DNA of 64,000 nucleotides from Psammoneis japonica (GCA_008632985.1 QPGO01000111.1:62001-126000), one strand, 5' to 3'; counted from the first letter of the stretch, positions 24,091 through 59,554 are shown. Numbers and translations are program-made. The notes: generated by a model not told the origin, from the letters alone.

Positions 24091-24279
24091 AGAGAGCTTC
24101 ACGCCCCTTGGCGTTGCTGAAGAGGTCTGTTTTGCAATTTTGCCTTTGTAGTGCTGATTGCAGCCTTGAAGGCGCTTAGCGATAATGTGTGCATGTATTT
24201 GATGGACGAAACCTTGGACGAACAAATCACGGGGTATATTTTTTAGTGTCCATAATATATTTACTTTTTACTTCGAGAG

Positions 24280-25370: not shown

Positions 25371-25431
25371 AACTATCTACCTCGTTTGCCTAATTTAGCT
25401 ACTTTATTATTTACACAATTGCCACAAAATA

Positions 25432-29035: not shown

Positions 29036-29082
29036 CTTTGATGCTTGGTTTTAAAAATTCTCTTTCTTTCGCATTTACATTG

Positions 29083-32749: not shown

Positions 32750-32796
32750 TGCTCCTGTCGTTTGTACCTTTCTTGCAAACATCACAGTCCCGGCCT

Positions 32797-33420: not shown

Positions 33421-33659
33421 GGCTGGCTTTCTAATTCTTTGCGTCGCGAAGCAGTGCCGCGCGGGGATCGACGGCCAGTCGCGCGTCTCTCTGGGGGGAG
33501 TGAGTGCGAGTGCCGGCAAGTTTGTCCCGCATTCGAAATTCAAAAAATCTGGTCAGATGCATGACGGGTGGGTGACAGGCGAGGTGAGACGATGAGATGT
33601 GATCGATCGCGACGGGAAACTGGAGATTCTCTCGAGTGGCTTGTGCCTCGGATGCACGT

Positions 33660-38213: not shown

Positions 38214-38327
38214 TGTCGCCCACGTTCCCGACTACCGACTGCGCGCGCCGACATCAAAGCATCGCATCTTGTCGATACAGCGAAGATATCATAACTCTAA
38301 AAAAGAGGGTGCAGCACATATTGCACC

Positions 38328-38783
38328 ATGAGTTTAGCCGAGAAAGCAACAGAACTTGCAGAGAAATGGGGAGCTTCGTTCACCAAGGGTGCCAAGGACG
38401 GAGATTTTTCGGCTTTTGAAGAGCTCTTTGTCAAGGATGAGCCGGTTTATGTCGTTTTACAAGATTCCCAAGGAAATGAAATTGAATGCATTGTTGAAGA
38501 TGATGGAGACGAGAATTCCTTCACTTGGAAGGAGCTAATTGACTTATTCAAGAAGGATATAAGCGCTGATACGAACTATTTCAAAACGGAAAGCGACTGT
38601 CTCGGAGTCTTGGGCGATCGTATGATTATGGAATCTTGTCGTTTCAACAAGGATGGCGAAATCTACCTGGCAGCCTTCTCCATTCTAACTTTGAATGAAG
38701 ACGGAAAGGTCAAAGAGTATGAAGCCTTTTCGGAGCCGCAAGCAGCAAATTTGATGGCTGCTGCTTCTGCAAAATTAGCTTAG
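38328..38783 (+). CDS. 151-aa acidic protein, probable SnoaL/NTF2-like fold
   Basis: Intact ATG-TAG ORF with normal composition. N-terminal helix + FEELF and C-terminal LTLNEDGKVKEYEAF pattern resemble the NTF2 superfamily (fold is inferred). Confidence 0.8.
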   Translation: MSLAEKATELAEKWGASFTKGAKDGDFSAFEELFVKDEPVYVVLQDSQGNEIECIVEDDGDENSFTWKELIDLFKKDISADTNYFKTESDCLGVLGDRMIMESCRFNKDGEIYLAAFSILTLNEDGKVKEYEAFSEPQAANLMAAASAKLA

Positions 38784-38882
38784 CTTTGATACTTAGTTTT
38801 AAAAATTCTCTTTCTTTCGTTTTTACATTTTACTCCTACAGTAAAGTTTGTCGCTTTCATACAAATATCATATTTCCGGCCT

Positions 38883-39500
38883 TCAATAACCACGACGGCG
38901 GGCACGGCGGGCCTGTCGGCGGCGTCCCGCTCCCGTCATGGCTCCTCCAGCGGCTCCGGCGGCTGCTCCCATCTTTGCTCCTTGTCCCGCGTCGCCTGCA
39001 ATGGCACCAGCAACCGCCCCAACGACGGCACCTTTTGCAGCTCCTCCCGCAGCTCCCTTGACCACGTGATGCTCATTTCGATGTTGAGGAGGAGGTGCCT
39101 GTTTCTGTGCGGGGGCGGGCGCAGGCTGAGGAGGAGGCGCGGCCTGAGGTGCGGGAGCTTCTTGCTTGGGTGGTTCGGGATTTTTGAGCTTGTTGATTTC
39201 TGCCTTGAGTTGAGCATTCTCTTCTTCGAGTTCCTTGAAACGTTCTGAAATTTCCGAATCTTCACCACCACCACCACCTTGAGCGAGACTTTGCGCAAAA
39301 TCAAGTCCCTTTTTCACTCTCTTGGTATCGAGGCCAGACAATCCAAGATCTACTTTCATATCCTCATCTGACAGCTCTACCAAAAGGCTTCCGTCAACCG
39401 AATTCTCACGAAAGGCATCTTGCTTCTTACCAAGTCCAATGGCAACTAAGAAGAGACAGACTTCGTCCACGGTATAATCTTTTGGCTCTTTCACCACCAT
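38883..39500 (-). CDS. SAM-domain protein with coiled coil, Pro-rich linker and C-terminal glycine zipper
   Basis: YTVDEVCLFLVAIGLGKKQDAFRENSVDGSLLVELSDEDMKVDLGL (SAM) and GAAGGAAKGAVVGAVAGAIAGDAGQGAKMGAAAGAAGGA (glycine zipper). Confidence 0.88.
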   Translation of the reverse strand: MVVKEPKDYTVDEVCLFLVAIGLGKKQDAFRENSVDGSLLVELSDEDMKVDLGLSGLDTKRVKKGLDFAQSLAQGGGGGEDSEISERFKELEEENAQLKAEINKLKNPEPPKQEAPAPQAAPPPQPAPAPAQKQAPPPQHRNEHHVVKGAAGGAAKGAVVGAVAGAIAGDAGQGAKMGAAAGAAGGAMTGAGRRRQARRARRRGY

Positions 39501-39719
39501 GGTTGGCTCTTTCTAAGAATTCTTTGCAAAAACGCGTGGATTATAAATATGGCATCGAGATCTTTCGCCGCGCGCATCAGTCGCGCTCGCGTCGGGGGGA
39601 TGCGTGATGCTCAATGCGTGTGGTGCGTCGTGCGTCATGATGGCTGGGAGGTGATAGACGATGGTGACGGGAAGCTGGAGATTCTCTCGAGTGGTTTAGG
39701 CATCATTGTACTGGTACAC

Positions 39720-40722
39720 ATGAAAAAGAGGAACGGCCATGAGCTTAGAGGCAGTATTTCAGAAAATTGAGGAAGTCATCAAGAGAGATCTTAGATCTTA
39801 CGCTGTCGGAGAAGGATTGCTTTCACAATTTTGGGGACAAGCTAAGTCAGATTGCGCAAGGGTTTATGACGATTGCCAACATTCAGCGCCTTCACTTCAA
39901 GGTGGCGAGTAAAATAAAAACGAAGACGGCAACACGATTGCAGGGATAATATCATTTCGATGGGCTGATTCCAGGAGCCTCAGGTCAAGGAAATTCGACT
40001 CTACAGTTGCCGTTTATGGCACATCGCTCTGTTCTGCGAAAATTAGCGAACCAAGCAGAATTTCGCCTGAAATTTCAGTTGGTGTCTAGCTCAGCGACGG
40101 TCAAGTTTGTCCGACAGTCATGCCAGTAATTGATTCTGTTCAGATCGATAGTGAACGAATGTCGATGATCACGCCCTATTACCCGCTAGACGTATCATCC
40201 TTGGATTTGAGGAATTCCCCTGAGACGGTCACTAATGCTGCCATGTGCGGATTGGTATCGGTCAAAGCGTTTTCAAACCAAAAAATATGTCATGCTGACA
40301 TCAAACAGAGCAATATGATGCTGGAACGGGCAAGAGGAAAAACGGCAGTGACGATTGACCTTGGATCCAGTGTTCCACACGGTGAGAGCATCACGGAGCT
40401 CTCTTTTGCTTTTGGACTGGACTGTGCTCCCACAGGCTCCCTCGGATACGACATGACCTGTCTAGCAGTTTCCATTGTGCATACGACGACTTCGATAAAT
40501 GATCCACTGAGGGAAGAAGTAACGCGAGCTGGGCTCTCACGTGCCATCGGAAAACCGCAAAACGTTGCTTTAAAGGTTGCAAAAGCTTGTCTGACGGAGG
40601 GTAAGAACATTGATGAAGTTTGGGAAGAGGCCAAAGAGTTCATAGAAAGTGAATATGGAAATGCGGAATCGCTTGTTGACTTGGAGTACATATTGCCACG
40701 AACGACCTATTCCGTTGCATGA
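39720..40722 (+). pseudogene. Protein kinase-like sequence; C-lobe open (40120-40722), N-terminal part interrupted
   Basis: Catalytic-loop-like HADIKQSNMML and DFG-equivalent IDLGS. Upstream frames contain stops/frameshifts. Confidence 0.65.
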
Positions 40723-41514
40723 CGAATCAAAGTAGAGGGACAAACTCTTCCCATGTCTCTCTACGCAACTCTTTTGCCATCTATCAGTGGAGTCGCGATC
40801 CCTTCACTGGTGCTCCTGTGTTTGTTGCCTCCGTCTCGACTCTCACGCTCTGCGTTCTACGACTTTGCTCGTGCATCGTGTTGAGATCATTTGGGAGTAA
40901 TCATTGTCCTTACCAATTATCTCTTCTAGAACAACAGCATACGGTGAAAGACACAAGTCTGCGAGGCGTGGTCCCAACTTCTTTTTGTCTTGTCTTCTAC
41001 AATACATAATTCTTCGGCCTTGATACAACCTTTGCCAGCACCTGCTGGAGTTTAAAACTCTATCATCTAGCCTAGTGCGTCCTTCATGATCGAGATGTAC
41101 AATAGCTTGGTCTATGAAATGGCGCTACGGCGAGTGCGTCCGACATTGAGTTGGAGATACCAACTATCTTTGCCTCCAAGGAATGTTGTGTTGACACAAT
41201 GTTGCTTCGATTCATTTCGATTCATGGGCATTTTGACGTTGCTGAAATGCTCTTGGATGATGGAGCCGGTTCGAGCACTGGCGCCAAAACGCGGATTGAC
41301 GCCGTTACTTTAAATGCGCAGAGAGATTGCTGCCTTGTTGCTGACTTTGGGAACACGTATTTGCATCTTACAAAGAACGAAAAGCGCAGCACTGATTCTA
41401 GAGAAGCTCTTATTGTTGAGAGAAACTACTGTTTTGTTAATATCCAGACTGCAGTATCATCGTAGTACTTTTTGGACAAGTCATTCTACTCTCTAGACTA
41501 GTTCTTACATAAAA

Positions 41515-43578
41515 TCACAATTGTCCGACCTGTCGAAGAAGCTCCAAGTTTTCATCTTCTTCATCCTGGTAGACTTCCTCTAGTTGTAGCTGAATCAAAT
41601 CCTTTGCATCCGCCATGCCATTTTTTTTACAAAGCACAGCGTTGCATGCGCTCTTGTACATTTCTCCGCCGTATTCACTAGACACCAAGCTCCAAAACGA
41701 GTACAGCTTCTGGTTTGTTCGTTGCACGTACATGAGAATCATGTTCAAGGCTCTGGCAGCCTCCAACACAATGACCGTCTTTTCTGCAAGGACCGAATGA
41801 TAAAATACTTGAACCAACAAAGCAATCCCCGACTTTACTCGTATGCTACCAACTTGGTCATGATTCCTATTGGTTGAGTTGGTCGTTGATTCTTCCGTGG
41901 CGTTTGCAATCATCTGAGTTCGAAGCAATGCGATTCCCTCGGATGTTTGACAGTACAAAATTGAAAAGAGACTCAGCAACTCCACACACAACGCATCGAG
42001 TCCATAATCGTCAGCCGCGTTTGCGTCACTTAGATAATCCCCGAGAACCCTATAGTCCATAATGTCGAGAATCAATGCCAACAGTCGACGGGAGTAGTTC
42101 CCGTTCCCATATAAATCCAAGAATTCCTTTTGATTTGACAGGACGAGCTTCTTCATTACATGAAAAGCACTCGTGCAAAGGTCCATGGCCTCTTCAAATT
42201 GCGCAGAAGCTAGATCAATTGTGGCGGCACCAGATACGCTTCCCTCGTACAGGGCACGATGAAAGCGGTGTTTCGTCTTCTTGTTTAGGCATGAATGAAA
42301 GAAAGGCTCCAACAAGACGCACATGATACATTCGCCGCAGTAGCTGTTCTTGTCGCAAAAGATGCCTTGCTTTTTCGGAAAGTAGATGTCTTGCCACCAC
42401 CTAATTGAAGAGTCGTTGGATGAAATCAACAAGGATAGAATTAAAAGAGATTCGCGTGCCAACTTCAAGGAGCTATCCTTGTCGCCGACGAGTGCCTGCT
42501 TGACAAAACCAACGAGCCTGGATATCACGTCACGACTTGTGTCCACTCGATACAGAGCATTCGATGTAGCGCTACCAGTCATGGAAGCGTCAGAGCCCAG
42601 CAGTGTTTGCGCGAGTTGTCCCAAACCATTCTCGCTAGACGATATCTCGCCGTCCTTGACGAATCTTATGCGACTGCGCTTTCTTGATGGCCTTGCTCGC
42701 ATAAAGTCATCTCGTCCGGGTTTGCTCCACAGCAAGATCTGATAGAAAACTTTAAGTGCTATGACTTGCTCTGTCTGGTTCTGGAGACACGATTGCGTAC
42801 GCTGAATGATCTCCCAGACAAAATCCAACTCTGAAATGGTATTGCTACACTGTCTGACATGGGACAAAAACTGGTATAAATCTTGCAGTTTACTGTCAGT
42901 AACGTCCCGAGGAAGTATCGTTGAAAGAATATGAGAAGCGAGTCGTTCGACAGTCCCATAATCGCGACGAGTAGCCTGTATTGGAACGTGATGATGAACA
43001 ACGATTGTTCTCGTCTTTGTAACGACACGAGGAGGAGGCGGAGTAGGTGTAGGTGGTAGAGCAGCAGCAGCGTTTGGTGAAACTGAGTGACTAATCAATG
43101 ACGCATTGGGATGATGCTGTTGGTGTTGCTGCTGCTTTTGGTGCTGTTTGAGTCTCGCATGAGCGAGATTAGCTTCTTGCTGAGCGCGACGCAATGCCTC
43201 CTGAGTTTGATGCAATTTCTGTCTTGATTCTTCTTGTACCATTTTGACGGAATGGCTCGTTTCTGCCTGAACCGTCGCCAAGGTAGCTGATAATTCAAAG
43301 ACCTGATCATCTTTTGCGACGAGTTCCAATCGTAATTGTTGAATCTAGAGAGAGAAACAAACATACCTGAGTACACAATGTCGAAAAGCAGCGAAAAAAT
43401 GCCGTTCGTGAAAACATACCTGTCGTTGTAGTTCTTCCTTTTCGCGCTTATCAGCATTATCATAGGAAGGAGGGATCAAGGGAGGATGATTAGAAGCTTG
43501 TTCGTGATAGCCATTTGTTCCGGGCGCGGATGAAGAGCCGTCGGTAGTCCACGCCATTTTGTCTTTGGACTGTTGCAT
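41515..43578 (-). CDS. Uncharacterised ~660-aa protein, N-terminal coiled coil and helical C-terminal region, 2 exons
   Basis: Exon 43420-43578, GT-AG intron 43345-43419 (cag|gtatgt...ctctag|att), in frame with the long ORF ending at 41515. Normal codon composition. Confidence 0.85.
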
Positions 43579-43817: not shown

Positions 43818-44905
43818 CATTTCCATTGTTCTGCCGTCGGCAAATTCCAAAGCCCTCTCTAGAGAGAGAGACTGCGGTGCTCCAAGCTGGTGCTTTTGTC
43901 CTCTCTCTGCTCTCTCGAACATCCAGCTCATTGGCTTCTCTCTTTCTTCTGTGTCCCAGCACAGTTCAAGAGAACAACAACTCAACTTTTTGTTCATCAT
44001 GTGGTGAAATGATGTTGCTTGTGTGGGCTGGTGAAAGGCTGATGCAGAGGCAAAGTGGTTAGAGACAGCTGGCTAAAAAAATGCAAAATGCAAGAAAAAC
44101 GATTGTGGTGCAGCGACACTGGCCACCATGAGACAGCTCTGTTCTTCTCTCATTGTGACCTTGGTCGGCACCTGTCATTGATGTGTGACAAAGGCCGCTG
44201 CATTTAGATCCCACCTGATGGCACCACAAGAGCTTTGAGTGCCATGTGGTGGGTGCTGATTTCTGTGGAAATTGGGACAAAACAATCACATGACAGAGGA
44301 TCCCAACGCAGCAAAGTCGTGCAGCGGCTCTGTGTCATCAAGCATGGAGGAGCCCCTCTCTGTTGGTCATGAAAGTTGCAAATTAATTTGCTCTCAGCAG
44401 CAGTGAGAGTGAGCATTTGGCCCTCTGTCAGCTGTCACCAGACATGTCAAGGCACCTCTGTGCATTTGCTGGAAGAAGTCAACAAACTTTTGCAACATGC
44501 GTTGTCATGTGCGCACCACATGTGCATGTCCACATGTCAAATAAAAGCACATTTCAATCGCACGTCAATCGTGGGTTCGTACGAAGTGCAGATCAGTCAC
44601 ACAGAAGTGATTGGATGTCGAGAATCGCAAATGCGATCGTACGATGATGTTGACATCTCATGTGTCAATGTCAATCGCATCCGGACAATCTGTCGTCACG
44701 ATCATATTCTCCGAAAGGCCTTTTGTCTGCAGGAGCAGCACAAAAGGTTTAGGCCATTGAGAACCCGTTCGGAGAAACCCAAAATGATTGCGCAGAAATG
44801 GTTCTCATAATTTTCACTTTTTGAACTTCATTCTACTTTCGTTTGCACTCGTTCTTCGAGCACAGTGCATTGTGCATACACACCACAGAAGGCAACAAGT
44901 TCAAG

Positions 44906-46060
44906 ATGAAGCTTTCACCTCATGCAACCAACGCCAAAACTTCGTCAAGGCAGGAGAAAATCGTCCCTCAACCGCTGGAATCGAACTCCGAGCCGAAGAG
45001 CCTCAAACCGAGCCAGCACCTCAAGATGGAGCAACGTTTTCATCCCGAGAAGAAGGACAGCCGCACCTGCACCATCAATGTTGAGTGCCACAAGAAACAA
45101 GGTGTCCCCAAGTTCATCGAATTTCTCAAGAGCTACGATCAACTTCCAGTGGGCCAGAATGTCAGGAAGCAATCTGATGAGTTTCGTCTCATGCACACGT
45201 TGCTCCAAGGAGACGCCCTGCGTGCTTTCGAGAATGCGGCAGCGAACCTTGAAGACGAATCTGCGGAAGGAAGCTTCGAGAAATGCCTGCAACATCTCAC
45301 GAGGCATGTGTTTCCCAAGAACGCACTTTCGGTGCAGAAACGTCATTTGCGTCGTGATCTCAAGAAGCCGGAGTCCATGAAAGTACGCGAAATTGCTGCT
45401 TGGGTCCAGGAAGTCAACGAAGACCTCAAGTTCCATCCTCCCTTTGGGAAGGAACAGAAGATCGAGGACGACGAGCTCAAGGACATCCTCTTCAACCTTG
45501 CACCTCGAAAGTGGCAGCGTCAGTCGACCGTCCAGGGTTTCGAAATTTTGAAACACACCCATGACGAGCTGGTTGAGTTCTTGGAGCGCCCAGAGGTCGC
45601 AGAAGACACATTTGATGGCATTCATGCCAAGGCTGATGGCAGTGGCGGCACTGCATCAAAAGCCAAGAGTGGTTCCCAACGTGGTTCCAAAAATGGTCAC
45701 CAACATGGTGCCGAAAAATCTCAGTCCGAGAAGTGGTGCATTTCATGCGAGAAATCCACTCACAACACGGACAAGTGCTGGTCGATCAAAAGACTTGCGA
45801 AAGAACGCCGTGGGAACTGTGAACCCGACCCGAAACGGCACCGTTCAAATGGCAATCGCACGTGGTCTCGTCGCGACAACGATGACGCCACTCGCAAAGA
45901 AGAGTTGAATGCTGTGGCGATCCAAGCAGTTCAAAAAATGCTCAAAGCGAGTTCTTCGAACAATGATGAAAAACACAAGAGCAAAGATTGTGATTCTGAC
46001 ACCCTTGACGAGGAAAATTGTCAGTTTGAAAAAATGACGCGCAGTGATTCCGAGGAATGA
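44906..46060 (+). CDS. gag: Gypsy Gag (hypermutated)
   Basis: Long ORF right after the 5' LTR with zinc-knuckle-like CISCEKSTHNTDKC. Confidence 0.85.
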   Translation: MKLSPHATNAKTSSRQEKIVPQPLESNSEPKSLKPSQHLKMEQRFHPEKKDSRTCTINVECHKKQGVPKFIEFLKSYDQLPVGQNVRKQSDEFRLMHTLLQGDALRAFENAAANLEDESAEGSFEKCLQHLTRHVFPKNALSVQKRHLRRDLKKPESMKVREIAAWVQEVNEDLKFHPPFGKEQKIEDDELKDILFNLAPRKWQRQSTVQGFEILKHTHDELVEFLERPEVAEDTFDGIHAKADGSGGTASKAKSGSQRGSKNGHQHGAEKSQSEKWCISCEKSTHNTDKCWSIKRLAKERRGNCEPDPKRHRSNGNRTWSRRDNDDATRKEELNAVAIQAVQKMLKASSSNNDEKHKSKDCDSDTLDEENCQFEKMTRSDSEE

Positions 46061-46156
46061 CTTGCACCGCAAGAGGAGTCTTGCGCTCCACTGGACATTG
46101 GGAAGCCCAGAAAAAGGGCCAAAGTAATTCATGCTAGTCCAGCAGTCGTCGCCCAT

Positions 46157-49100
46157 GTGAATGCTTCATTGGGCAAGGCGAAAAATGAGCCTCTACGCGT
46201 TCTCCTCGACAGCGGAACATCGTCAACCATAATTTTGCGCAAATTCACGCGGAAACTCAGAACAAAAGCATCCGCCACCAAACTCTGGGAAACCAAAGGA
46301 GGGCTCTTCACGACTGACAGTCGATGTAAGATCCAATTCTCCTCACCCGAATTTGACAAACATGAGATGATTGAAACAACGGTGTGTGTTGACAACTCCC
46401 CTTCTTCTTCGAGTCGTTATGACATGATCATGGGACGCGACTTAATGTCAAGTCTTGGGATGATGTTGGACTTCTCGAATGAAGAAATTAAGTGGGAAGA
46501 TGCAACTGCTCCTGTGAAGAATGTTGGCACACTCTTCGATGCCGATGTTTTTAAGTTGATTGCCGATCACATTGAGGAATCTCATGCAGTGATTGGTCTT
46601 AATGACAGGGTCAATCGGATCCTTGACTCAGACTGTCACGCTGCAAACCTCAACAATGTGACCGCAGCAGCCACTCATCTAACTCCTGAAGAGCAGAAGC
46701 AGCTGAACTTCCTCTTAAAAAGATTTGAAAACCTTTTCGATGGTTCTCCAGGCAAATGGACCGGGAAACCGGTGGATTTAAAGTTGAAATCGGGCGTGAG
46801 TCCGTATCATGCCAAACCATTTCCCGCGCCACAAGCCTTGGAGGCGACCACTCGTAAGGAGGTTGAAAGACCATGCAAGTTGAAAGTCTTAAGAAAAATA
46901 AATTGTTCTGAATGGGCGGCTCCAACCTTTGTTCAACCCAAGAAAAATGGCAGAGTTCGGTTCTTGTCCGACTTTCGAGAGCCAAACAAGAGGTTAATTC
47001 GCACTCCGTTTCCTCTGCCCAATGTTCAGGACATGCTACAGAAGCTTGAAGGCTTCATGCATGCAACGTCCCTAGATTTAAACATGGGACACTATCACAT
47101 CGAATTGACGCCGCATGCACGTCGGTTGTGCACGATCGTCATGCCTTGGGGCAAATGTGAGTGCTGTAGACTCCCGATGGGAATCTGTGGAGCTCCAGAC
47201 ATTTTCCAAGAGCACATGAGTGAGCTCATGGCAGGTCTGGAGTTCGTCAGAACTTACATTGACGACACATTGTGTCTTGCAAAAAGTGATTTTCAAGACC
47301 ACCTCAAGAAGCTTGAAACGGTGTTCTCACGCCTAGAACAAGCCGGATTGAAGGTCAATGCCGAGAAGTCCTTTTTCGCTAAACCCGAAGTAGACTGTCT
47401 GGGCTTTCATGTCACCCGCAAGGGCATCAGTCCGATTCCAAAAAAAGTAGAAGCGATTCACGCGATCGCAACTCCTAAAACTCGCAAGGAATTGCGACGC
47501 TTCATCGGTGTGATCAACTGCTGTCGAGACATGTGGCCTCGACGATCTCATGTTTTAGCTCCCTCAGCCAAACTCACTTCCACCCAAGTAAAGTGGCAAT
47601 GGACCGAAACAGAACAAAAAGCCTTCGAAAATGTGAAGCGCATCATCTCCAAAGATGTGCCATTGTCATGCCCGAATTTTAACACACCCTTTGAGATGTA
47701 CACCGATGCTGGTAAATCTCAATTGGGGGCGGTTGTCACTCAGAAAAACCGACCAATTGCCTTCTACAGCCGCAAGCTGAATGGAGCGCAGACGCGTTGT
47801 GCCACAACGGAAAAAGAGCTGTTGTCCACAGTGGAGACGTTAAAAGAGTTCCGAAATGTGCTGTTTGGCCAACAGACAAATGCATGTGCGGATCACAAAA
47901 AATCTCACACACAAAAATTTCACAATGGACAGAGTCATGCGTTGGCGTCCAACAATGGAAGAGTGCAGTCCCGAAACAATGTGCCTTGAGGGCAAGGCAA
48001 ATGTTGTCGCAGACGCGATCAGCCGACTTGCTGTGAAGAAAATAGAACCTGTGGAAACCCTCAGCACAGAAGAGCTGGCTGAAAAGGTCCTGCCAAAATC
48101 CTGCGACAATGTCTTTCCGTTAAATTACAAAGTTCTTGATTGTGAACAAAAATGGGATAAAGACATTCTCTCCCAATTGTCAAACAAGACGTTTCGTGCG
48201 AAGACTTTTCGTGGAGGCGAGCGAGACCGGTTGCTCATGTGTCACAAGGACAAAATTGTCGTCCCGAGGACGTTACAAAAGGCAGTGACAGATTGGTGTC
48301 ATGCATGCCTTCTTCACCCTGGCATAAATCGAACAGAAGAAACAATCTCACAACACCTGTGGTGGTCCACCTTGCGTGAAGACATACGAAAATACGTGTC
48401 GAGATGTGAGACGTGCCAAAAATTCAAAAAGAAACACAAGAAATGTGGACATTTACCTCCTGAGTGCGCAGAATCCGCACCATGGGAACGACTGTGTGTG
48501 GACCTTGTTGGGCCATACAAAATGCGTCGTAAGGGAAAGAAAAAACCCCCAGTCCTGAAATGTTTGACCATGATCGATCCAGCAACCGGATGGTTTGAAG
48601 TTGTGGAAATCCCAAATGAGGAGTCCACAACTGCAGCTGGACTGTTAGAACGAACATGGCCAAGCAGATGTCCTTGGCCATCGTCAATTGCACATGACCG
48701 TGGAAGTGAGTTCATCGGACACCAATTTGGAGAAATGGTGCAAGATGATTGTGGCGTTGAAGTCAAGCCCATGGCTGCACGAAATCCACAAGCAAACGCA
48801 ATTGTTGAACGCGCACATCAAGTGCTGGGGAACATGCTCCGTGCGTTTGATTTGCAACACACACCTCTAGATGCTGAGGATCCTTTCGCTGGAATGCTGT
48901 CAGCAGTGGCATTTGCGGTGCATTCCATGTGTCACACCACTGCGCAAGCTACACCAGGACAACCAGTCTTCAACAGAGACATGACATTTAACGTCCAACA
49001 TGTCACGGACTGGAAATCAATCCAGCAGCGAAAACAAGAAATCACAAATAAAAACAACGCTCGAGAGAATGCTCGACGTGCTCCTCACACGCACAGAGCA

Positions 49101-49241
49101 GGAGAAAAGACACTGCTCGAGAAAGACTCGCAAAAATTAGAACAGCCCCATGTTGGACCGCATGCAACAACAACGGCACATGCTGATGGCACAGCACAGA
49201 TCAAACGCAGTAACGTCATTGACACTGTCAACATTCGTTGA
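46157..49241 (+). pseudogene. pol: Gypsy Pol: protease, RT, RNase H, integrase (hypermutated; frameshift ~47900)
   Basis: LLDSG, SLDLNMGHYHI, LPMG, YIDD, YTDAG, TTEKELL, HPGINRT..CETC, CVDLVGP, DRGSEF, NPQANAIVER. Confidence 0.93.
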
Positions 49242-51820
49242 ACAATGCCGTTTAACGACTGACTCCAATGTGCAATTAGGGAGGCGAATGCAACATGCAT
49301 TGTCATGTGCGTGTTGCACATGTGTGTCCACACATTAAATAAAAGCACATTTCAATCGCACGTCAATCGTGGGTTCGCACGAAGTGCAGATCAGTCACAC
49401 AGAAGTGATTGGATGTCGAGAATCGCAAATGCGATCGTACGATGATGTTGACATCTCATGTGTCAATGTCAATCGCATCCGGACAATCTGTCGTCACGAT
49501 CACATTCTCCGAAAGGCCTTTTGTCTGTGGGAGCAGTGCAAAAGGTTTAGGCTGTTGAGAACCCGTTCGGAGAAACCCAAAATGATTGCGCAGAAATAAT
49601 TCTCACAATTTTCACTTTTTGAACTTCATTCTACTTTCGTTTGCACTCGTTCTTCGAGCACAGTGCACTTTCTTGCCGAGTGAGGACCCCACCCACAATT
49701 TTCTGCAAGCTTTTTGAGGACAACTTGGCAGTGCTTGAAACAGCCAAAGTGCCCAAGATGAGGCCCAGAACATGCCACATCAACAATGTCCACCACCACT
49801 TCCACTCAGAGGTTGCCGGTGGACGTTTGCTGATTGAAGTTGTTGGCACCAAGCTCCAACAGGCGGATTTCTTGACAACCAAAATGCCCAACCTGTCAAC
49901 ATTCTTGCACAATCATCTGTCTGTGCAGGGATGGCAACAACTTGGACCTTTCGGCATGAGGGAGTGTGACATCATGTGCACATTTGTGTGTTCAACATGC
50001 CTCAAGCTGCAAGAATGACTTGTTGCTGTGACCACCATCAACAACTGAACCACCTGCAGATCAATCAATGCAAACCCAATCAAGAATTTTGAGGCTCAAA
50101 TCAAGAAGAGAGTTCACTTTGTTCTTGTTCTCACACGAACAAGAACTTCTTGTTTGTGTCAAGTCTTTGACCCCTGTTCATCCATGTTGCCTTCAGTGCA
50201 TCTTTTGGTCACTTCTTGTTTCTTTGCAGCTCTTGTTGGTTGCAGAGCAGCACAATTCATGTTCTCACAATTTGGAAATTGGTGAAAACCAAACACTGCA
50301 TGATTGTCTGTGTCAATGCTGTTTTAAGTCTCTGTGGCCCAAAACTCCACACACCCACAGAAGGATCTCATCAGTGCATCATTTGTGGAGCTTGTCAGCT
50401 GACCCCTTGCTTGACAATTGAGGGAGTGGAGCAACATCCTTTCTGGTTGATGCGTCCACAGAAGACCTCTGAGAGTTTAGTTGCTGACCCAAAGTTTTGG
50501 TGCACCGCCGCGCAGTGCACCGGCAGCAAATCTGCTTGCTCTGTGAGACAAGACAGTTGTCCACAACAAAATTGTCACAGCTCACAATGCACATGCATCA
50601 ACAGCATTTTCTTGCATGACATTGAGTGGTCCAAGTGTTGCCTTTGGGAGGAAATGAAAAATGAACGAGAAATTTGGCACAAACACTCTTGCAAGAACCA
50701 GCATCATCACTCAACTTGCCAAATCTTGCCAACCAACATTTTGCAAAAATTGATCAATTCCACACAAACTGGGGGCACACTGTTCTCATGTGGAGTTTGC
50801 AGCAATGGCATGTGCCCCTGTTTTCCAAGGAAGAGAGAGAACACCACCACAAAAGCCTGTCAGGTGAACAGCATCAATGAGCTGCAGTGTTTGTGTGGCA
50901 CGATTTGTGTTCTGAGTGGCAAAATGGCTTGACAGTGTGCAGAATTGTTGCGGTGCATGGGCCTCTGTGCAAGCAAATCCATTTCCAGGGCATTTCACAT
51001 GCAGCCATTGTGGTGGTTGATGTTCAACAAAGGCCGAAAATGCATCTCATGTGACAAAGAGACAACATGTGAGAATGCCCAACTCCTTCTTCAGATTTGC
51101 CCCTTGGCTCAATTCACACAACCAAATGTTTGTGTGGAGGCCCCTGCTCATGGGTGGATCTGTCCAGCATTCCCAAATGCCCAATCGCGCTGATCAACAG
51201 ACTGTTTTTGCACAAACCGCAGCTGCTGCATGTAAATTTCTTCAACAGTCTCACTTCCGAAGGCGCCCCCCAACACCAACCCATGACACGGGCAGACAGC
51301 AGACCTGTTTTGGCAACTGAGGCAAGTGCGTGGCTGCAGGAAGTGGTCAGCCCCGCACACTTGTGACTTGGAGCTTTCTGCGGTGAAAATTGCGCACCCG
51401 ACCCGACACTGACAAAAACAGTCAGACAACTTCCGCTTGCCACAATGTGAGCTGCGTCTGATCAACAATTTGTGCAGAACAAGGGGCAACAGACAAAAGC
51501 CAGAACAAACATGTTTTGTGTTTGAAGTTGTTCAATGTTTTCAAACATTGTTTGAAGTGTTCAATTTTTTGTTGCAAATGTGTTGCTCTCCTGGGTTTTG
51601 CCCTTTTGGTCATTTCAAACTCATTCTGACAAAGTTTGAACTTGTTCCAACAAGCTTGATTGAAGTTTGGAACAGCATGTGCACAGTTGCACAAAAACAG
51701 CATTTTTTCTCTTGTTGCCCGGTGGGCAATGACAGAATTCTAAGAAGAGTTGAAGGTGCATGTCACTCTCTGGCTGAAACATGTGTGACCATGTACAAAA
51801 AGCCTGTCAGTTTGAAGAAA

Positions 51821-51884
51821 GCGGTAAATGGTTTAGTCGGTAACCGGTTACAAGAGGACCTAGGTTCGATTCCTGGGTATCGCA
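51821..51884 (+). ncRNA. tRNA-like Pol III unit in TRIM 5' LTR (no normal anticodon arm)
   Basis: A-box tggtttagtcgg, T-arm ctagg-ttcgatt-cctgg (B-box), acceptor-like gcggta/tatcgc-a, followed by TTTTT. Confidence 0.7.
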
Positions 51885-52321
51885 ATTTTTCAGGTTGATG
51901 GGTCGGATTTAATCGAGTTGGTCAATCTTGTTTAAATCCTGTCATGGTGCGAGGACCGTTGATGATTTGAACCCAGGTGTGTGTGCTCCTTCAAGATGAC
52001 TCTAAAACTGAGGAGAGGCTGCGGTGAGACAGACCGACGATGCACATAGTGCTCTTATTAGGGATGCCGAGGCCGGAATGGCCGCCCAATTATCAGTTCG
52101 CCGGGGAGGTCATGACATGTGCAGAAAAATGTGGCCCAGGTAGAAGGGGAGCTGTGAGAAGTATCATTGTCCAAAGAAAGGAACGTCAGACAGCTTCGTG
52201 ACGTCAGACAGCTTCGTGACATATGGGGAGTGACAGAATTCTAAGAAGAATTAAAGGTGTATGTCACTCTCTGGCTGAAACATGTGTGACTATGTACAAA
52301 AAGCCTGTCAGTTTGAAGAAA

Positions 52322-52385
52322 GCGGTAAATGGTTTAGTCGGTAACCGGTTACAAGAGGACCTAGGTTCGATTCCTGGGTATCGCA
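52322..52385 (+). ncRNA. tRNA-like Pol III unit in TRIM 3' LTR
   Basis: Identical to 51821-51884. Confidence 0.7.
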
Positions 52386-52446
52386 ATTTTTCAGGTTGAT
52401 GGGTCGGATTTAATCGAGTTGGTCAATCTTGTTTAAATCCTGTCAT

Positions 52447-55400
52447 TGACAGAAATTGAAGGCAAATGGCAAGAATTCAAACAACAACTCCTTGCTGCTG
52501 TCCAAATAGCAGATGAGTCTCCGCTCAGAGACCGTTGCAGGAGCCGAAAGACGTGTAAGTCGGTGTGATCGGGCTACTGTTGTCATTCTTGTGAACCTTG
52601 TGGCTCGAAAGCACACTGCATCGCGCGTGAACGCGCGGAACTGAAGCACACAAAACTGTGCACGGTGACTAAACAGCGCGCGATGCTTCGCGCGCACCTG
52701 AATCCTGCTCAAATCCTGTCACTCCCCAGTTTGCTTGAGGAGCCACAGAAACAGATTCGACTTCGGATGGAATGAAGTTCCAGAACATGAGGGGGCGGAG
52801 AAGGTCCCAGATTTGGGACAACCCCAATGCTTGCTGAGAATGTCAGCAGGGTTGCGGGAGCCTTCGATGAAGTGGAGCTCAAGGCAGCCAGAGGCAATTG
52901 CCTCACGCGCATGGTGGAACGACAGCGCGGCATGTCGCTTGTGCAACTTGGAGTGCGGGATGGTGGCACTGTCTGCAACCGACTTGTTGTCACCGAACAT
53001 GCAGCTGACGTTGCGGATCGGGACGCCAAGGCAGCGCAGGGTGATGCGCAGGTCGACAATCTGCTCAACACAAGTCCTTGCGGCAACAAATTCAGACCCG
53101 CAGGTCGCAGTCTCCACGGTGGCTTGTTTCTCAGAGAACCAATCAGCCGGGAATTTGTTGAGGAAGTGGAGCATTCCCATGACAGAGCGCCCGGTGAGCA
53201 TGCAATGGCACAAGTTTGCATCGACGCAGTGGGTGGTGGCGACGAACTTGCCAAGGGGCGGTGGAGCGTCCTTCGGGATCATCTCTTCTGCTCCACCACA
53301 CACGGAATGCATCCACCCACAGGCCGGAGCAGGGAGATCCGAATGGCCGGGCTCTTCCGTGCGACGCGGAGAGCACCGTGTCGCATCTTGGAGAGGTGCC
53401 CACAGACGCGCTTGGCACGATCCAAGTGGCCTTGACGGGGCGCAGCTCGGAAGCTGGAGAGTGACATGACGGCCGCGGCAATGTCAGCTCGACCAAGGGA
53501 CACTGCCCATTGGAGTGAACCAACAAGAGACTGGAACTTGTGATGCCATCGGGTCCCAGCAGTTCGGAAGTGTCCAGCTCGGGGTGGTCACCCTTCTCTA
53601 GAGGTGACAGGGCGTTGGTGGTGGGTTTCTCCCCAAACAGTCGGGCACAGCTGTCAACCATGCGCTCGATGTGCTTGCGCGGAGACAGGCACAAGGTTCC
53701 GTCGGGTTCCCGGGAAAAGTCGCAACCCAGATGGAACTCAATGGGTCCCGCACCCTTGAGCTTGAACTTGTGCTTTTCCGTGAGGGTGTCGACGAAAGAT
53801 TGAGGGTCCTTCATGGCAATGGCCAGGTCATCCACACAAACGGCAATGTGTTCACAGTGGTCGCCGTTCCTGCGCATCCAAATGTCGGGTTCGGCGCGGC
53901 AGGGGAAGAAGCCTTCAGCTCGCAGGCAGTCGGCGAAGCGCTCGTGCCAGCGGAGACCGGAGCTGCGCAGTCCATGCAGTGCCTTGTGGATGACAAGGAT
54001 GTGTCCTTCGAGTTTGCCGAACTCGGGTCCAGCTGCAATGTAAAGCTTCTCCTTGGTGGTGGCTTCAAGGTGGGCATTGCCAATGTCGGTGGCCCATGTC
54101 TCCAACTCGTTGAGTTCGGCCAGGAAAATCATCAGCCGAAGGCCACGGAGGGAGACTGCTCCGGAGTGGACACTGTCGACAGGTGCGTCCGTGAGGTGCC
54201 CGTCGGCTGCGAGTCGTGCCTTGTGGCGACCGTCGTGTTTCACGTCGCACACCAGGTGCACTCGGATCTTCTTGTGTCCCGCAGGAGGAGTGGAAGACTT
54301 GAAGGGCCCGCAGTCATGGAAGACTTCGCATTCGTCGAGTTGGTCCATCTCGAGATTAGTTGCGTCTCCCCACTTGCGGTTGCCGTTGCGTTCGTCTGGT
54401 GACATGGCGTGTTTGCAGTTCCGGGGAACTTCGCATCCATGCTTGCAGCGAGGTGCAGTGCGGAAGGAGCGAAGCTTGGCTTGGTTGGCCATGCGAAACA
54501 GCTTCTTTTGGCGCCTCGCGATGGTGCGGAACCGCTTCCAGCCATCCGTGTCGAGGAGTCCGATCTCTCGTGCATGGATGGCACAGGTGACGGGGTCGTC
54601 CTTGGCGATGATGGCAAGAGGCTCGGACGTGATCTCCCCACTTTCCCATTCAAGCATGATGTTGTAGCTGGAGCCTTTCCAGGTTGGGTCGTGAGGCTTC
54701 AGAGGTCCTTCGTGTGACACGATGCGTCGAAATTTCCAAACAGTGGTGTCTTCGTCTTCTTGCTCAATGTGATTCATGATGTCATTGCAGGCAAGGACTT
54801 CCTCGCATTCGTCATTGTTGACAGAGCAGACGAACTCAGTGAGCTCGGGATTGCCGTTCACTTTCCATTCGTGGTCTTCGACGGCCTTGACGATGCGAGC
54901 TCTGTGGCGTTGTCCGTCCTCTTGTGGCTGCATGAGGAAGGTGCGTCCAATGATGTCTTGCGGATCGAAAACTGGCATCTTGGGTGTCCTGATCTCCCCA
55001 TCAGGAGAGTCGACGGGGTTGTCGTCATGGCGAGATTTGATGATGGGTTCAGGTGGCTCCCCATCAGGAGGATCAAGACGCAGGTTTCGGACAGCAGGAT
55101 CGGGGGTGGCGGAGCGGACGTTGGACCGGCAGAGGATTTTCTGATTCTCGTCAGATAGAATCTTGAAGGTCATCTGGTGGCCGACGTGCTCAGCAATGCC
55201 AACGAAGCGTCCACGCAACTCACGGGATTCGGACGGCCAATCGGAGTCATCGAGGTGGAAGCACACGGGTTCCCACCAGTGAAAGCGAAGCAATGGGCTG
55301 ATGTCCGGGGTGGAGCCAGTGAGAGTCTCAAGGGGCGTGCGCCAGTGGAGACGTGGGGACGCTGTGTGGTTGAGCATGAAGCACACGCACATGAGCGCCA

Positions 55401-58400
55401 GCAGCCATGCATGGGCGGGCGAACCAAAACGATCCATGACAGTGTTCGCCATGCGCTTCACGGTCTGGCATCGACGCTCGGCAAAGTTTTGGTGTTGCTG
55501 GTGAGGCTCACTTTGCCAGCTAGAGATGAAGAGGGCGCGCAGGAGCCCGAGCACTTTGTTGCTGATCTCAACTTGAGCACGGTTGCTGATGAGTTTGGAT
55601 GGGGCACCACGTTCACGGATCTGATCCTCGAGTGTGTTGACAAACTCTTTGTCCGTCTTGGTGCCACAGACGTCAGTGACGGTAGACTCGGTGCCAACAA
55701 ACAGTTGGGCGCTGGTGCAACCAGAGTCAACGGCCGGGGTGTCGGCACAAACGGTGTCAGTGGCGATGGGCTCGTTGCGGCGGTGCACATTAAGGGCGGG
55801 GTTGGGTGATTTGCAGGCCTTGCGAAGGTGTGTACCGGCGGGCATGCGGGCGCACTGCGTGGTGCAGTCAAAAGTGCGACGGACCGCATCGGCAGGTGGG
55901 AAGCCAAAGCAAGGCCGAAGAGACTCGAAGGGGGGGTCCTTGGGCTGTGCAGTGCGCTCCGGAGGTGGAACATCATCGCCCTGGGGGCCAATCGCATGCA
56001 GATGACACTCGTAGAACACGTCGTCGTTCGGAATGAGGTGATCATCGAGGGCGGACGCGTGATCGGCAGACAAGGAAGCGGACATGATGGTCTCGTTGAC
56101 AACGACACGATGACGGCAGTTGCCGCATTCGTCAAATGGGTTGGCAGTGGGATCGTCCTGCAGGTCAGAGATCGCATCGCACCACTGGTCGTCGTCAGTG
56201 ACAGAGTGATCGAGGACGGAAGGGTCCCATGTGTCATCACCGGTGAGGATGACATGGGGCAGGGTGTCCCATTCGGCGTCAGTGCAAGGTCGCATGGCAA
56301 CATGAGGCAGGCCAGCCTTGATGTCAATGGGGATGACACAGCCATCAGGAGTGGCAGTGCGTTGCAAGCCGTTGGGCACCTTGACAGAGCGATCGTTGAC
56401 ATCCTGTTTGTGCCATTCGAGCTGGCCGCAGGAATGGATGGTCTTGCCCTTGCCCGTGCATGCGTGCTGATGGAGTGTGGCGATGACGGGACCACGCTGG
56501 GTCTCAATGACGGCACCAGCGGTGACAATGGGGATGTCCACCAATTGATGATCGTCAATGCCCTGAACGTCGACTTGGCGAGAGGTGCGTGCAATGACGC
56601 GAACGTCGTCGCCAGCAATGCCGCCGTTGGCCCCACGATCGACTAGAGCACCAGTGCGTGTGGAGCGATGAGCAGAAGCAGAGCAAATGACATTGTGGTT
56701 GTCAACGCGGCGGTAAGTGCGACCGTCAAGTTCCATGTCATCTGCAGAAGCTGGCGGGGTAGAGGAAGCGGCGGATGGCCCCGGTCGACTGGCATTGGGG
56801 GCTTGGTTAGGAGACAACAGACGTTGCAGATCACCGGGTGGCAGTGGCTTGTGCTTGGTGAGGTGCGCCAGGATGGGATTGTCCGAAGTGGCGTCCACAT
56901 GTGGAGCGGAGTCACCAGAGTCAGCAGGAGTCGTGTTGGACAAGTTGACATCACCGTCACTCCCAAGGCGTTGGTCGTGAAGGTTGGCCGTAACAGACTC
57001 ATGGCAGTTGCTGGCTCGCGGGTTGCGGGGAGGTGGACGAGAATGCTCAAGGATGATCGCCTTGGAGGAATCGGGCAACGAATCCCAGAGCCGTTGGTGG
57101 TCGGGAGGGAGACGTCTCCATTGGACACCGGCGAGGCTGGGACCGCGGGTGCAGGCAGCATTGGCTTGAAGGACGTCAACGTCGCTGTCAATGTCGTAGA
57201 ACACATCGTCGGACGGTTCCTCGGAGTGGACGTCGTGTGCGCACATGGCGCGTCGGGGAGCTCGAGGTGTCGTCTTGGGTTGAAACGTGCTGTCGTGCTG
57301 AGCTGCGGCGGAGAGGAGCAAGCCACAGCATTGATCGTATGTGAGGCTCTTGCCACTCTGCGCACGATGCTGATCAGCTTGGTTCTTGACAGCACGGAGT
57401 TCCTCGACAGGGTGCACGGCATTCTCGAGCATGACGCGCTTCTGTCCTTCAGAGAAGTGGTCACTGGCCGGGATGAGTGCCTCGCACTTGCGCAACTGAT
57501 CTTGCCAATGAAGGATGAACCCGTGGGTCGGACCTTTCCAAGTGCCATCACCAAGACGCGCGGTGGTGAGGTGCGTGAGCAGGGTGGAGGACTCGACAGA
57601 TGCGCGGGTGGAGGCAAGCGCGCACTCAGACAAGGAGCGGCAGACGGTCTGTGCATCAGAAGACCCCACATTTTCGCGAATGAGAGCCTTGCCCTTGTCG
57701 GTGAGAAGGATGCGTTCGAAGACGGCGAACATGCACTTTTGCTGTTCAGCAAAGAGCAGTTTGTCTTCGGGGCTGGTCGGTTTGTACGACGAGTCTAGAA
57801 TGCACTCGACGTCTTGGGCACGGGCTTGTGCCACAAGTGAGGTGTGCCAAGTGTGCCACTGCTTGTCGGATTTGAGAGCCGTGAAAGCGGTGGGATCACG
57901 CTTGATGCCTCGCTTGAAGTCCCGCACCGGGTCGCGTGCCTTGGTCGGGTTGGTGACATGTGGAGGTGCAAGGGGTGAGCTGCCGATGGACACAGAAGAC
58001 ATGCAGTCGGGGCTGAGGCGGCAGGCAAGGAACTCGTCATGCGTGAACAAAGAGGAGTCGTTGGCAACGTCAAGACCTTTGTGTGCTTTGACAATGTGCA
58101 GACTGACCAGTGCTGCTAACATGTTCTTACAACCATGGGGCAAAGGGATTGCATTGGTGCCGTTGTCGTGCTCAAGCGAGTCGATTTGGGACGGTGTGAA
58201 CGTGAATGGTTCCTGATGCGAGTCCGTGCCGTCTTGGGCCAAAGCCAAACGAAGAGGACTCCCAGCACCTTGGGCAAGCACGGTTCCAACCACGTGCTCA
58301 AAAACCATCGGTTTGTTGCTGACGAGTGAGAACCATGGCAGACAAAGGTGGTGTCAGGACAATCAATTCTGGTTGGGAAGCGAAGGTGGACTCGAAACTT

Positions 58401-59554
58401 GGGTGAGAACAGACTTGACTTGAAATGGACTTGACTTGAAATCTTGAACTGTCTTAAAATCAGAAGTCGCCGGGCTTTGTCATCCCGTTCGTTGTTGAGT
58501 GCTAAACTTCCTGTCCGGTCCGTAGAGTTGTGCCGGCACGTCCGAACCCGCAGCCAGTGGCGCTTTGGGTTGCTTACGAGCGGAGTAGCGGGTTGTAAAC
58601 CCCTGCAGGCAAGCTGACTAGAGGTGGACAAGACCCCCGAACCGTTCTTGTTTTATGTCGGTTGGATTTCCCGATCAGGCTGGCCAGCTGATGCAGGCGT
58701 CAGGCGCTGTGGACGAACGAACAAACGCGGGAAAGCACCCTCGCCCCAACGCAGGCTGTGATCACGGCCACCTGCTCTCACAGTCGTCCTCGTGGACCTA
58801 GCAGAACTGTAGAGCACCAGCAGTCCGGGGTGGATCAGGTGCAATGGACTCGGTGTGCTTGCAGAGTGGCAGCAAAACCGAAGTCCGAAGAGTGGATAAA
58901 GGTTCTTGGCCGTGAAGACATGCACATGTACACACATGTCTTCAGCGACGAAGATCCTTGAACATGCAGGGTTCTTGACCGTTAACCGAGGAACAGGCAC
59001 ATCAAGGGATGTTGATCAAGGATGGGACTTGGACATGACCGTTGAATGTAAGTCTTCAGCGATCAAAGGCAGCACAATCAATCCAGATATCCAGCGGTAA
59101 GGAGACTTGACGGTGACGTTAACTTCCTGCCGATGCCCTGGTGTTGAATGCGCGTAGACTTGCCGATGTATGTAGAACACACACGGAGGTCCACGTAGAA
59201 TTGAAATAGCGTCGTTGGTAAATCAACGACGACGATGGCGGTTGCTCAATGGGTTGACAATGAGCAAGACTGTTAATCTGACAGAAATTGAAGGCAAATG
59301 GCAAGAATTCAAACAATGACTCCTTGCTGCTGTCCAAATGGCAGATGAGTCTCCGCTCAGAGACCGTTGCAGGAGCCGAAAGACGTGCAAGTCGGCACAA
59401 TCGGGCCACTGTTGTCATTCTTGTGAGCCTTGTGGCTCGAAAGCAAACTACATCGCGCGTGAACGCGCGGAACTAAAGCACACAAAACTGTGCACGGTAA
59501 ACTAAACAGCGCGCGATGCTTCGCGCGCACCTGAATCCTGTTCAAATCCTGTCA
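52447..59554 (-). mobile_element. Full-length Ty1/Copia (CoDi-like) LTR retrotransposon
   Basis: ~275-bp LTRs at 52447-52721 and 59279-59554, PPT actggggag adjacent to 52721, domain order gag-PR-IN-RT-RH, ~1 kb 5' leader. Confidence 0.95.
52719..58336 (-). pseudogene. Copia Gag-Pol polyprotein (hypermutated; frameshifts near 58310, 53540, 53330)
   Basis: LVDRGANGG (PR), EPHQQHQNFAER (IN), DVKHDGRHKARL, DIGNAHLEA, KALHGLRSSG, AVCVDD (RT; YVDD>CVDD), VDANL, ETATCGSEF, NPADILSK (RH). Confidence 0.93.

Follow-up and report, generated by a model that had tools for sequence, protein, structure and literature searches.

Evidence for both-strand, TpA-specific hypermutation of chromosomal transposon copies in a diatom genome window

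Why should the two ends of one retrotransposon differ almost only at TA, CA and TG dinucleotides? The question is raised by a Ty3/Gypsy element in a 64,000-nucleotide stretch of the Psammoneis japonica assembly (GCA_008632985.1, QPGO01000111.1:62001-126000). We refer to this whole stretch as the window and count all positions from its first letter. The original prediction, made from the sequence alone, held that ancestral TA dinucleotides in the two long terminal repeats (LTRs) of this element had been resolved to CA or TG after insertion, in DNA, on both strands and independently in each LTR. We compared the LTRs with each other, the element with its family and its relatives, and further repeated sequences within the window. 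The results are best explained if chromosomal transposon copies in this genome undergo both-strand, TpA-specific hypermutation to CpA/TpG that continues after integration, a reading to which we give a probability of about 0.78.

The LTR pair and its ancestral state

The carrier is a Ty3/Gypsy LTR retrotransposon, with TG..CA LTRs, a short target duplication and the order reverse transcriptase, RNase H, integrase (Pfam domains RVT_1, RT_RNaseH_2, Integrase_H2C2 and rve). Its 5' LTR (44491-44869) and 3' LTR (49289-49667), both on the plus strand, are 379 bp long and are enclosed by identical target-site duplications CTTT (unstranded, 44487-44490 on the left and 49668-49671 on the right); a purine-rich tract lies immediately upstream of the 3' LTR. 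The internal frames are likewise on the plus strand. A gag-like open reading frame (ORF) at 44906-46060, with 2 TA per kb and without a Pfam match, ends in TGA and is in frame with pol part 1 (46061-47989; RVT_1 and RNase H). The second part of pol (47844-49241; integrase zinc-binding domain and core) lies in a different frame from the first. CpG is near expectation in both the gag and the pol parts, despite the uneven TA loss described below.

Support for the letters comes from run X1, a public sequencing run perhaps made from the sample behind the window assembly, which thus does not represent an independent individual. It contains 0.59 of the sampled 31-letter words of the window exactly, and its k-mer contigs over the unique flanks of the element (depth 64 and 66) show 0 differences over 213 and 259 bases. 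X1 is one of three public runs of a single sample; the other two, X2 and X3, gave no match here. Another X1 contig, at depth 53, joins 44489 to 49674 with 3 letters between and represents the empty-site allele. Together with the matching CTTT duplication, this allele indicates that both LTRs were one sequence at integration, the premise on which the original prediction was built. The Gypsy family is very abundant in the run (summed depth 5,000-25,000, as against about 55-65 for single-copy contigs), and one base at 47897 is missing in most of the family depth, which points to a frameshift in this Gypsy copy.

The ungapped comparison of the two LTRs gives 24 mismatches in 379 positions, all of them transitions. 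Eight CA/TG doublets take up 16 of these positions; the others are four TA/CA sites, one TA/TG, one CG/CA and two other transitions. Thus 21 of the 24 mismatches are TA-type positions, as had been predicted, and the sequence strings quoted in support of that claim are present as written. CpGs are largely shared, with 22 common to both LTRs and 1 differing, and four TpAs are common. When 24 transitions were placed at random on the LTR 20,000 times, the mean was 5.8 TA-type positions and the maximum 14, with at most four doublets; none of the 20,000 simulations reached the 21 positions observed, demonstrating that mismatches are enriched at TA.

This enrichment has a direct effect on dating. The Kimura two-parameter (K2P) distance of the LTR pair is 0.068 over all sites and 0.008 once the 21 TA-type positions are removed. 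The insertion is therefore young, and the age read from LTR divergence is inflated about 8-fold, in agreement with the predicted overestimate. The differences are also unevenly spread: 13 of the 24 lie within 38 bp (44501-44538), in a patch dense in CA, TG and TA that may formerly have been a TATA-like region, and the other 11 are isolated TA-type sites over 230 bp with no other markers of a foreign tract. AATAAA is kept in both LTRs. At 44800-44801, one LTR reads TGG and the other TAA, and at three places (44801, 46527 and 48774) this Gypsy copy has TGG and most of the family TGA.

The doublets could in principle descend from TA or from CG. Five LTR sites retain TA in one of the two copies and one site retains CG. 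We fitted a one-rate model to the classes that can be observed between two copies, namely sites intact, hit once, or hit twice with discordant outcomes. Assigning the eight doublets to TA gives a probability p = 0.72 of a hit per TA site per LTR and 0.02 per CpG; assigning them to CpG instead makes the fit 22 log-likelihood (lnL) units worse. At position 44538, 81% of the Gypsy family depth carries T, that is, TA. By arithmetic from p = 0.72 and the two to three other differences in 379 bp, the mutation rate of TpA would exceed that of other sites by some two to three orders of magnitude.

The coding part of the same element gives a separate view of the lost dinucleotide. Tyrosine codons (TAY) are one transition away from both cysteine (TGY) and histidine (CAY). 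We compared Gypsy Pol with 30 homologues at 50-60% identity and called a tyrosine column conserved if tyrosine occurred in at least 80% of them. Only 7 of 25 such columns keep tyrosine; 13 have become cysteine, 4 histidine and 1 threonine, so that 17 of the 25 codons have moved to cysteine or histidine. Both parts of pol contribute (part 1, 16 columns: 5 kept, 8 cysteine, 2 histidine; part 2, 9 columns: 2 kept, 5 cysteine, 2 histidine). Over the other conserved columns, 388 of 483 are kept, including phenylalanine at 22 of 23 and proline at 34 of 34. Further frequent changes in Pol also fit: leucine to serine or proline, isoleucine to methionine, threonine or valine, threonine to alanine, and lysine to glutamate. 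Taken together, these observations favour TA, and not CG, as the ancestral state of the discordant LTR sites, in line with the original prediction. Gain of TA in the manner of repeat-induced point mutation (RIP) was also considered as a source of the LTR differences and rejected, as it is incapable of giving CA/TG doublets between LTRs.

Variation within the Gypsy family has the same character. Relative to this copy, X1 contains 486 family-variable places, made up of 453 transitions and 33 transversions, and the counts of family states given here rest on the 40 best supported of them. These comprise 22 TA-type rows, 10 CpG-type rows, 6 other transitions and 2 transversions. Among the TA-type rows, the family has TA where this copy has CA or TG in eight and the reverse holds in two; the remaining 12 rows form six doublets, at which at least 80% of the family depth carries the other form than this copy. 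Such doublets, largely in one mutated form across the family, imply that mutated progenitors kept transposing.

Low TA is not a property of the element clade. Using an alignment of 17 sequences as query, we collected 593 metagenomic relatives of Gypsy Pol and kept the best 80, among which the observed/expected ratio (o/e) of TA ranges from 0.43 to 1.18 with a median of 0.76. This copy has 0.21, and none of the best 80 of the 593 falls below 0.43, so that the depletion belongs to the host. A metagenome scan with the single Pol protein gave 32 pattern matches, 0 of which were confirmed.

The same signature elsewhere in the window

A second LTR pair lies downstream, belonging to a Copia element (unstranded, 52447-52721 and 59279-59554). 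Its two copies have 15 mismatches, of which 14 are transitions, with three CA/TG doublets and five single TA/CA or TA/TG sites; all 20 CpGs, including long CGCGCG runs, are common and 0 differ. The Copia internal region (53143-58353, minus strand) has RVT_2 as its only Pfam match, a GC content of 0.57-0.60 and a stop-free frame of 1736 codons containing 0.4% tyrosine, 3.3% cysteine and 5.1% histidine. Immediately upstream of the LTR at 52447 is a 223-bp repeat at 97% identity (51723-51945 and 52224-52446); as the sequence directly before the LTR start looks like the end of an LTR, the LTRs here may be nested or in tandem.

The signature also extends beyond retrotransposons. An unmutated element resembling a miniature inverted-repeat transposable element (MITE), of about 396 bp with an internal palindrome and terminal inverted repeats of about 23 bp, lies at 36488-36883 (plus strand; TA o/e 0.85 over 36493-36884) between flanks of TA o/e 0.06-0.07. 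In an older copy of the same MITE (19252-19643, minus strand), 24 of the 25 aligned TA are now CA (9) or TG (15), and 0 TA are left.

The largest pair in which the direction of change can be polarised is a segmental duplicate, with copy A at 28505-35667, interrupted by a Helitron-like insertion, and copy B at 38235-41637. Copy B is unmutated (TA o/e 0.54 and CG o/e 0.97 over 38235-41637). The last block (plus strand; 33593-35667 in A, 39645-41637 in B) has lost 62 of 68 TA and 61 of 84 CG in copy A. TA in B has become CA (29) or TG (33) in A, with 1 case in reverse, and CG in B has become CA (31) or TG (30), with 7 in reverse. The near-equal outcomes of 29 and 33 bear out the earlier claim that both strands are hit. 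Losses in copy A are smaller in the other blocks (11/23 TA and 3/26 CpG at 28505-29085; 8/11 TA and 13/37 CpG at 32760-33442) and thus grow, for TA and CpG alike, towards the adjoining TA-free tract. The duplicate carries an ORF with SAM-domain and glycine-zipper matches, and the insertion that splits copy A is about 3.7 kb long with a Helitron-like ORF at 30686-32224.

These pairs allow the sequence context to be read. In the largest of them, A-to-G changes occurred at 62 of 147 sites per strand where the 5' neighbour is T, versus 6-8% for other 5' neighbours. Pooling the context over four polarised pairs shows that the 3' side matters as well: TACG was hit in 17 of 21 cases, TAC followed by A, C or T in 27 of 49, TAT and TAG in about 30%, and TAA in 12 of 62. 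Consistently, 60 of the 70 TA survivors in TA-free tracts stand in TAA/TTA context, and survival of TTAA in these tracts is about that in gene-like DNA. The order of CA and TG along the sequence is random (36 runs versus 31.8 expected). On this count, strand-coordinated clustering, the mark of a processive single-strand deaminase, is rejected, and the sites are hit singly rather than in strand-coordinated stretches.

TA-free DNA makes up about 25 kb of the window, at 0-5 TA per kb. In such tracts TA o/e is 0.00-0.08 per kb, CA/TG reaches up to 1.8-1.9 and CpG o/e is 0.1-0.5. The longest tract (1001-20000, unstranded) has 51 TA against 1298 expected and 383 CG against 1079; the tract at 60001-64000 (unstranded) has 9 TA against 267 and 25 CG against 232. 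The insertion target of the Gypsy element is itself such a tract (49668-51700, unstranded; 3 TA versus 145 expected), with a TA count of 0 over the right flank 49668-50170. On the other side, the left flank at 44200-44490 exists in X1 as a second haplotype that differs at 17 positions, with 8 gaps, over 184 bases; this haplotype lacks the Gypsy insertion, indicating high heterozygosity of the genome, or a pair of diverged subgenomes, at this locus. No Pfam domains were found in 20 ORFs of the tract 1001-20000, and Rfam gave 0 matches over the whole 64-kb window.

The conversion leaves a distinct trace in reading frames. The stop-codon words in 1001-20000 number 35 TAA, 8 TAG and 463 TGA. The process is incapable of creating a stop codon: TAA can become only TGA or CAA, and TAA and TAG are lost. 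It follows that long open frames in mutated DNA, whichever strand they are on and including the 1736-codon Copia frame, are artefacts. Across 1001-20000 and 52700-58650, stop-free frames are very long, and those of opposite strands often overlap.

Host DNA in the same window is spared. A host H+-pyrophosphatase gene (plus strand) and a hybrid histidine kinase gene (minus strand) together occupy 21461-27968. Among named sequences, the kinase (24341-27968) is best matched by relatives from Entomoneis, Epithemia, Amphora, Seminavis, Nitzschia and a Bacillariaceae metagenome-assembled genome, at 37-48% identity over most of the query, which makes a diatom the most likely host. Overall TA o/e in host genes is 0.45-0.63. 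Because a T-to-C change across the codon boundary between positions 3 and 1 is always synonymous, this boundary allows host and transposon frames to be compared: TA o/e there is 0.58, 0.53 and 0.63 in host frames, and 0.21 in Gypsy pol, 0.00 in Gypsy gag and 0.11 in Copia. The non-coding spacers at 23807-24340 and 27969-28504 have TA o/e of 0.79 and 0.90. The sparing of host genes and spacers argues that the process is not a genome-wide bias and that it goes with transposons and their silent surroundings. As assembled, the kinase gene also contains a 1092-bp tandem duplicate that repeats the HATPase-receiver part (24279-25370 and 25370-26461, 96.9% identity), in which 32 TA are kept and 4 of 34 differences are TA-type. 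Duplication as such does not seem to be the trigger, on the strength of this one case, which is perhaps under selection or very recent. Further downstream, a 609-codon open frame on the minus strand (41515-43344) lies in gene-like DNA (TA o/e about 0.6) and gave no Pfam match.

Weighing the explanations

Several other processes could leave CA and TG at corresponding sites of two LTRs. The most familiar is the decay of ancestral methylated CpG, deaminated on opposite strands in the two copies, and CpG decay is indeed visible in the window: in the 61 of 84 CpG lost from copy A, in the low CpG of the TA-free tracts, in 10 of the 40 best-supported family differences and in the single CG/CA site of the LTRs. 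As a source of the doublets it has next to no probability, for eight double hits beside 22 CpGs intact in both LTRs and one hit once would need extreme rate heterogeneity. The lower likelihood, the five sites still TA in one LTR, the tyrosine codons turned to cysteine or histidine in the same element and the three Copia doublets among 20 of 20 intact CpGs all speak against it, and the raised GC of Copia is in the direction expected of A:T to G:C. Equally improbable is an exchange by recombination or gene conversion with differently mutated family copies. In an abundant family that varies mainly by transitions, converted tracts would also appear TA-type, and 13 differences do fall inside 38 bp; that cluster is, however, the place of highest CA/TG/TA density, the other 11 differences are isolated sites without foreign-tract markers, and a single insertion without rearrangement is what the matching 4-bp duplication and the empty-site allele indicate. 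Gene conversion would in any case still require a process that turns one site into both CA and TG across copies. Editing during retrotransposition, by ADAR-like A-to-I conversion of RNA or by deamination of cDNA before integration, is unlikely, even though mutated states are inherited within the Gypsy family and A-to-G change preferring a 5' U/T brings RNA adenosine deaminases to mind. RNA editing would be expected to affect only the sense strand and to leave the same changes in both LTRs; the near-equal CA and TG outcomes and the discordant LTRs contradict this, so that its exclusion in the original prediction stands. The exclusion of cDNA editing went further than the LTR pair allows, as a deaminase working on linear double-stranded cDNA, once complete, would have access to both strands and could change the two LTRs independently of each other. 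What speaks against such editing is the occurrence of the signature in a DNA transposon, the MITE, in a duplicated segment along which the loss is graded, and in 19 kb of featureless DNA.

Two further alternatives concern the DNA or the genome as a whole. If modified TpA in silent DNA were misread as CA or TG by a long-read basecaller, the true DNA would still be TA; the restriction to silent DNA and the random CA/TG outcome do resemble strand-dependent miscalls at a modified palindromic site, and the library type of X1 is not on record. Yet the X1 contigs cross the TA-free flanks with 0 differences and without the splitting expected of competing miscalls, 0.59 of the sampled words recur exactly, and the graded TA loss tracks CpG loss in polarised pairs, as ageing would and miscalling would not. 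We consider such an artefact most improbable. A genome-wide neutral bias against TpA, with selection retaining TA in genes, is very unlikely. It could draw on the host-gene TA o/e, which is also below 1 (0.45-0.63), and on TA-free tracts without recognisable transposon domains, but it does not account for the difference between host genes (0.53-0.63) and transposons (0.00-0.21) at the synonymous codon boundary, for the high TA of the spacers between host genes, or for the intact 396-bp MITE between depleted flanks.

We therefore return to the hypermutation of TpA in integrated DNA. In this process either strand can undergo the A-to-G change, the hits are independent from site to site and from copy to copy, and they go on after integration, at a rate about two orders of magnitude or more above that of other substitutions. 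Only transposons, decaying duplicates and long tracts without features are affected, and these also lose CpG, more slowly. Expressed host genes escape, as do the short spacers that separate them, and the boundaries in composition, for example near 20.5, 28.5, 36.5 and 44.0 kb, are sharper than 250 bp. Mutated strands show a preference for T-A-C(-G) over T-A-T and T-A-G, and for these far over T-A-A, with TTAA almost immune. Tyrosine codons, TATA-like motifs and TAA/TAG stops are erased. The driver may be an enzyme activity tied to silent chromatin.

A number of observations weigh against this reading or narrow it. The evidence base is one 64-kb window and one run that is possibly the source of the assembly itself. 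The chemistry is inferred: the data show neither an enzyme nor a base modification, nor a mutation event in progress. Part of the TA loss in the Gypsy element is inherited from mutated progenitors and not post-insertion (the six doublets at which at least 80% of the family depth has the other form), which qualifies the claim of post-insertion mutation that the discordant LTRs otherwise support. The original prediction also expected family members to show TA at the discordant sites: they do at 44538, and at 44801 they mostly carry TGA, these two being the LTR places where the family state is readable, to the exclusion of the eight doublet sites. The loss is uneven inside the element, with 2 TA per kb in gag (45001-46000) and 15-18 per kb in pol (46001-49000). 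The three TGG-versus-TGA differences misfit a strict TpA rule; they may be background change, or A-to-G may have another, weaker context that comes into play once a site has been hit. The intact MITE is located in TA-free DNA, so that either the MITE is very young, or the process was a past burst, or it is targeted to elements rather than region-wide. Finally, Pfam searches of 29 ORFs from TA-free tracts gave 0 credible hits (two weak ones lay below the cut-off), which means that restriction to transposons partly rests on composition.

As to the chemistry, we know of no natural DNA-level enzyme for A:T to G:C at TpA. The candidate that we rank first, and hold tentatively, is direct deamination of adenine at TpA in DNA, in the context T-A-(not A), where the resulting hypoxanthine would pair with C. 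Second, and more doubtful, comes a base modification of the palindromic TpA that is mutagenic, such as oxidised thymine mispairing with G. N6-methyladenine (6mA) is unlikely as the cause: according to the accessible part of bioRxiv 10.1101/2024.10.28.620566, eukaryotic 6mA is found at ApT in active genes, seems hardly mutagenic and was not detected in the diatom Phaeodactylum. It is possible, if speculative, that diatoms or this lineage possess a chromatin-targeted enzyme converting A:T to G:C at TpA in double-stranded chromosomal DNA (a natural deaminase of DNA adenine, or an activity that modifies or aminates thymine) and that it serves a genome defence inactivating transposons.

The phenomenon appears new in kind. 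Our search of the full-text literature, with subscription journals and supplements outside it, found no description of TpA-to-CpA/TpG hypermutation, and the available portions of two diatom transposon papers and one stramenopile epigenetics review (PMC2806351, PMC3145265, bioRxiv 10.1101/2025.10.24.684338) do not mention it. If real genome-wide, it would be a second kind of transposon-directed hypermutation in eukaryotes and would suggest a new DNA deaminase or mutagenic DNA mark in a major group of marine primary producers; a natural editor of adenine in double-stranded DNA, if true, would also be of interest to genome engineers. There are practical consequences for annotation. In such genomes LTR-divergence dating overestimates insertion age, stop-free ‘ORFs’ of hundreds of codons on both strands can mislead gene callers into over-prediction, and homology-based transposon annotation will overlook fully converted copies.

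Comparison with known systems

Decay of CpG through 5-methylcytosine is similar in many respects. It has a palindromic dinucleotide target, acts on either strand, yields CA and TG, affects silenced DNA, accumulates with age and co-occurs in the same tracts. It differs in that the target here is TpA. In the two young LTR pairs, about 70% of TA sites are hit per LTR and 42 of 43 CpGs are untouched (1 of 23 CpG sites differs in the Gypsy LTRs and 0 of 20 in the Copia LTRs), which argues that the TpA process is separate from CpG decay and much faster.

Deaminase editing of retroelements (PMC4866542), by APOBEC on cDNA or ADAR on RNA, also produces clustered transition hypermutation of LTR retrotransposons that becomes fixed in the genome. 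Such editing acts before integration, on one strand and on retroelements only. Here, by contrast, both strands are hit, the LTRs are discordant, and the signature extends to a DNA transposon and a duplicated segment. The changes are thus not confined to the transcribed strand, to identical LTRs or to retroelements as expected of ADAR, and they are T-to-C and A-to-G at TpA rather than the plus-strand G-to-A of APOBEC.

The tRNA adenosine deaminases (TadA/ADAT) and the base editors derived from them convert A to I, read as G, at U/T-A-C-G. The best context found here, T-A-C-G (17/21), recalls the U-A-C-G loop, a lead that comes with few context data; natural enzymes of this group act on the tRNA loop and not on chromosomal DNA. 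Another parallel is 5-hydroxymethyluracil in dinoflagellate DNA, which is said to favour TpA and TpC and occurs genome-wide. To our knowledge it has not been found in diatoms, and we know of no report of TpA loss from it. It is nonetheless an algal modification of thymine at TpA and might in principle cause T-to-C mutations; it differs in being genome-wide and not restricted to transposons. The dinoflagellate base is mentioned in the accessible part of bioRxiv 10.1101/2024.10.28.620566.

The closest comparison is with RIP in fungi, which is described in PMC2621366 and PMC7882544 and which the available part of PMC9998398 brings up only in connection with DNMT4. RIP changes CpA/TpG to TpA (C:G to T:A), lowers GC and creates stop codons; sequence duplication triggers it, and it requires a RID/DNMT-type enzyme in the premeiotic stage. 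Both processes act on DNA after integration, are dinucleotide-specific, make transitions only, hit both strands and strike each copy independently, the last two being seen here in the LTR discordance, the 29:33 ratio and the absence of strand runs. Both leave a skewed dinucleotide composition with sharp boundaries and degrade coding capacity. The direction is opposite: here TpA goes to CpA/TpG and A:T to G:C, so that TpA falls where RIP raises it, GC rises (to 0.57-0.60 in Copia) where RIP lowers it, and no stops can arise. The chemistry lies beyond a deaminase resembling cytosine methyltransferases, a 1.1-kb tandem duplicate at 96.9% identity in a gene was left untouched (one case), and the host is a diatom-like stramenopile, not a fungus. 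If true, the process described here would be a chemically inverted counterpart of RIP, one that erases tyrosine codons and TATA-like motifs without making stops.

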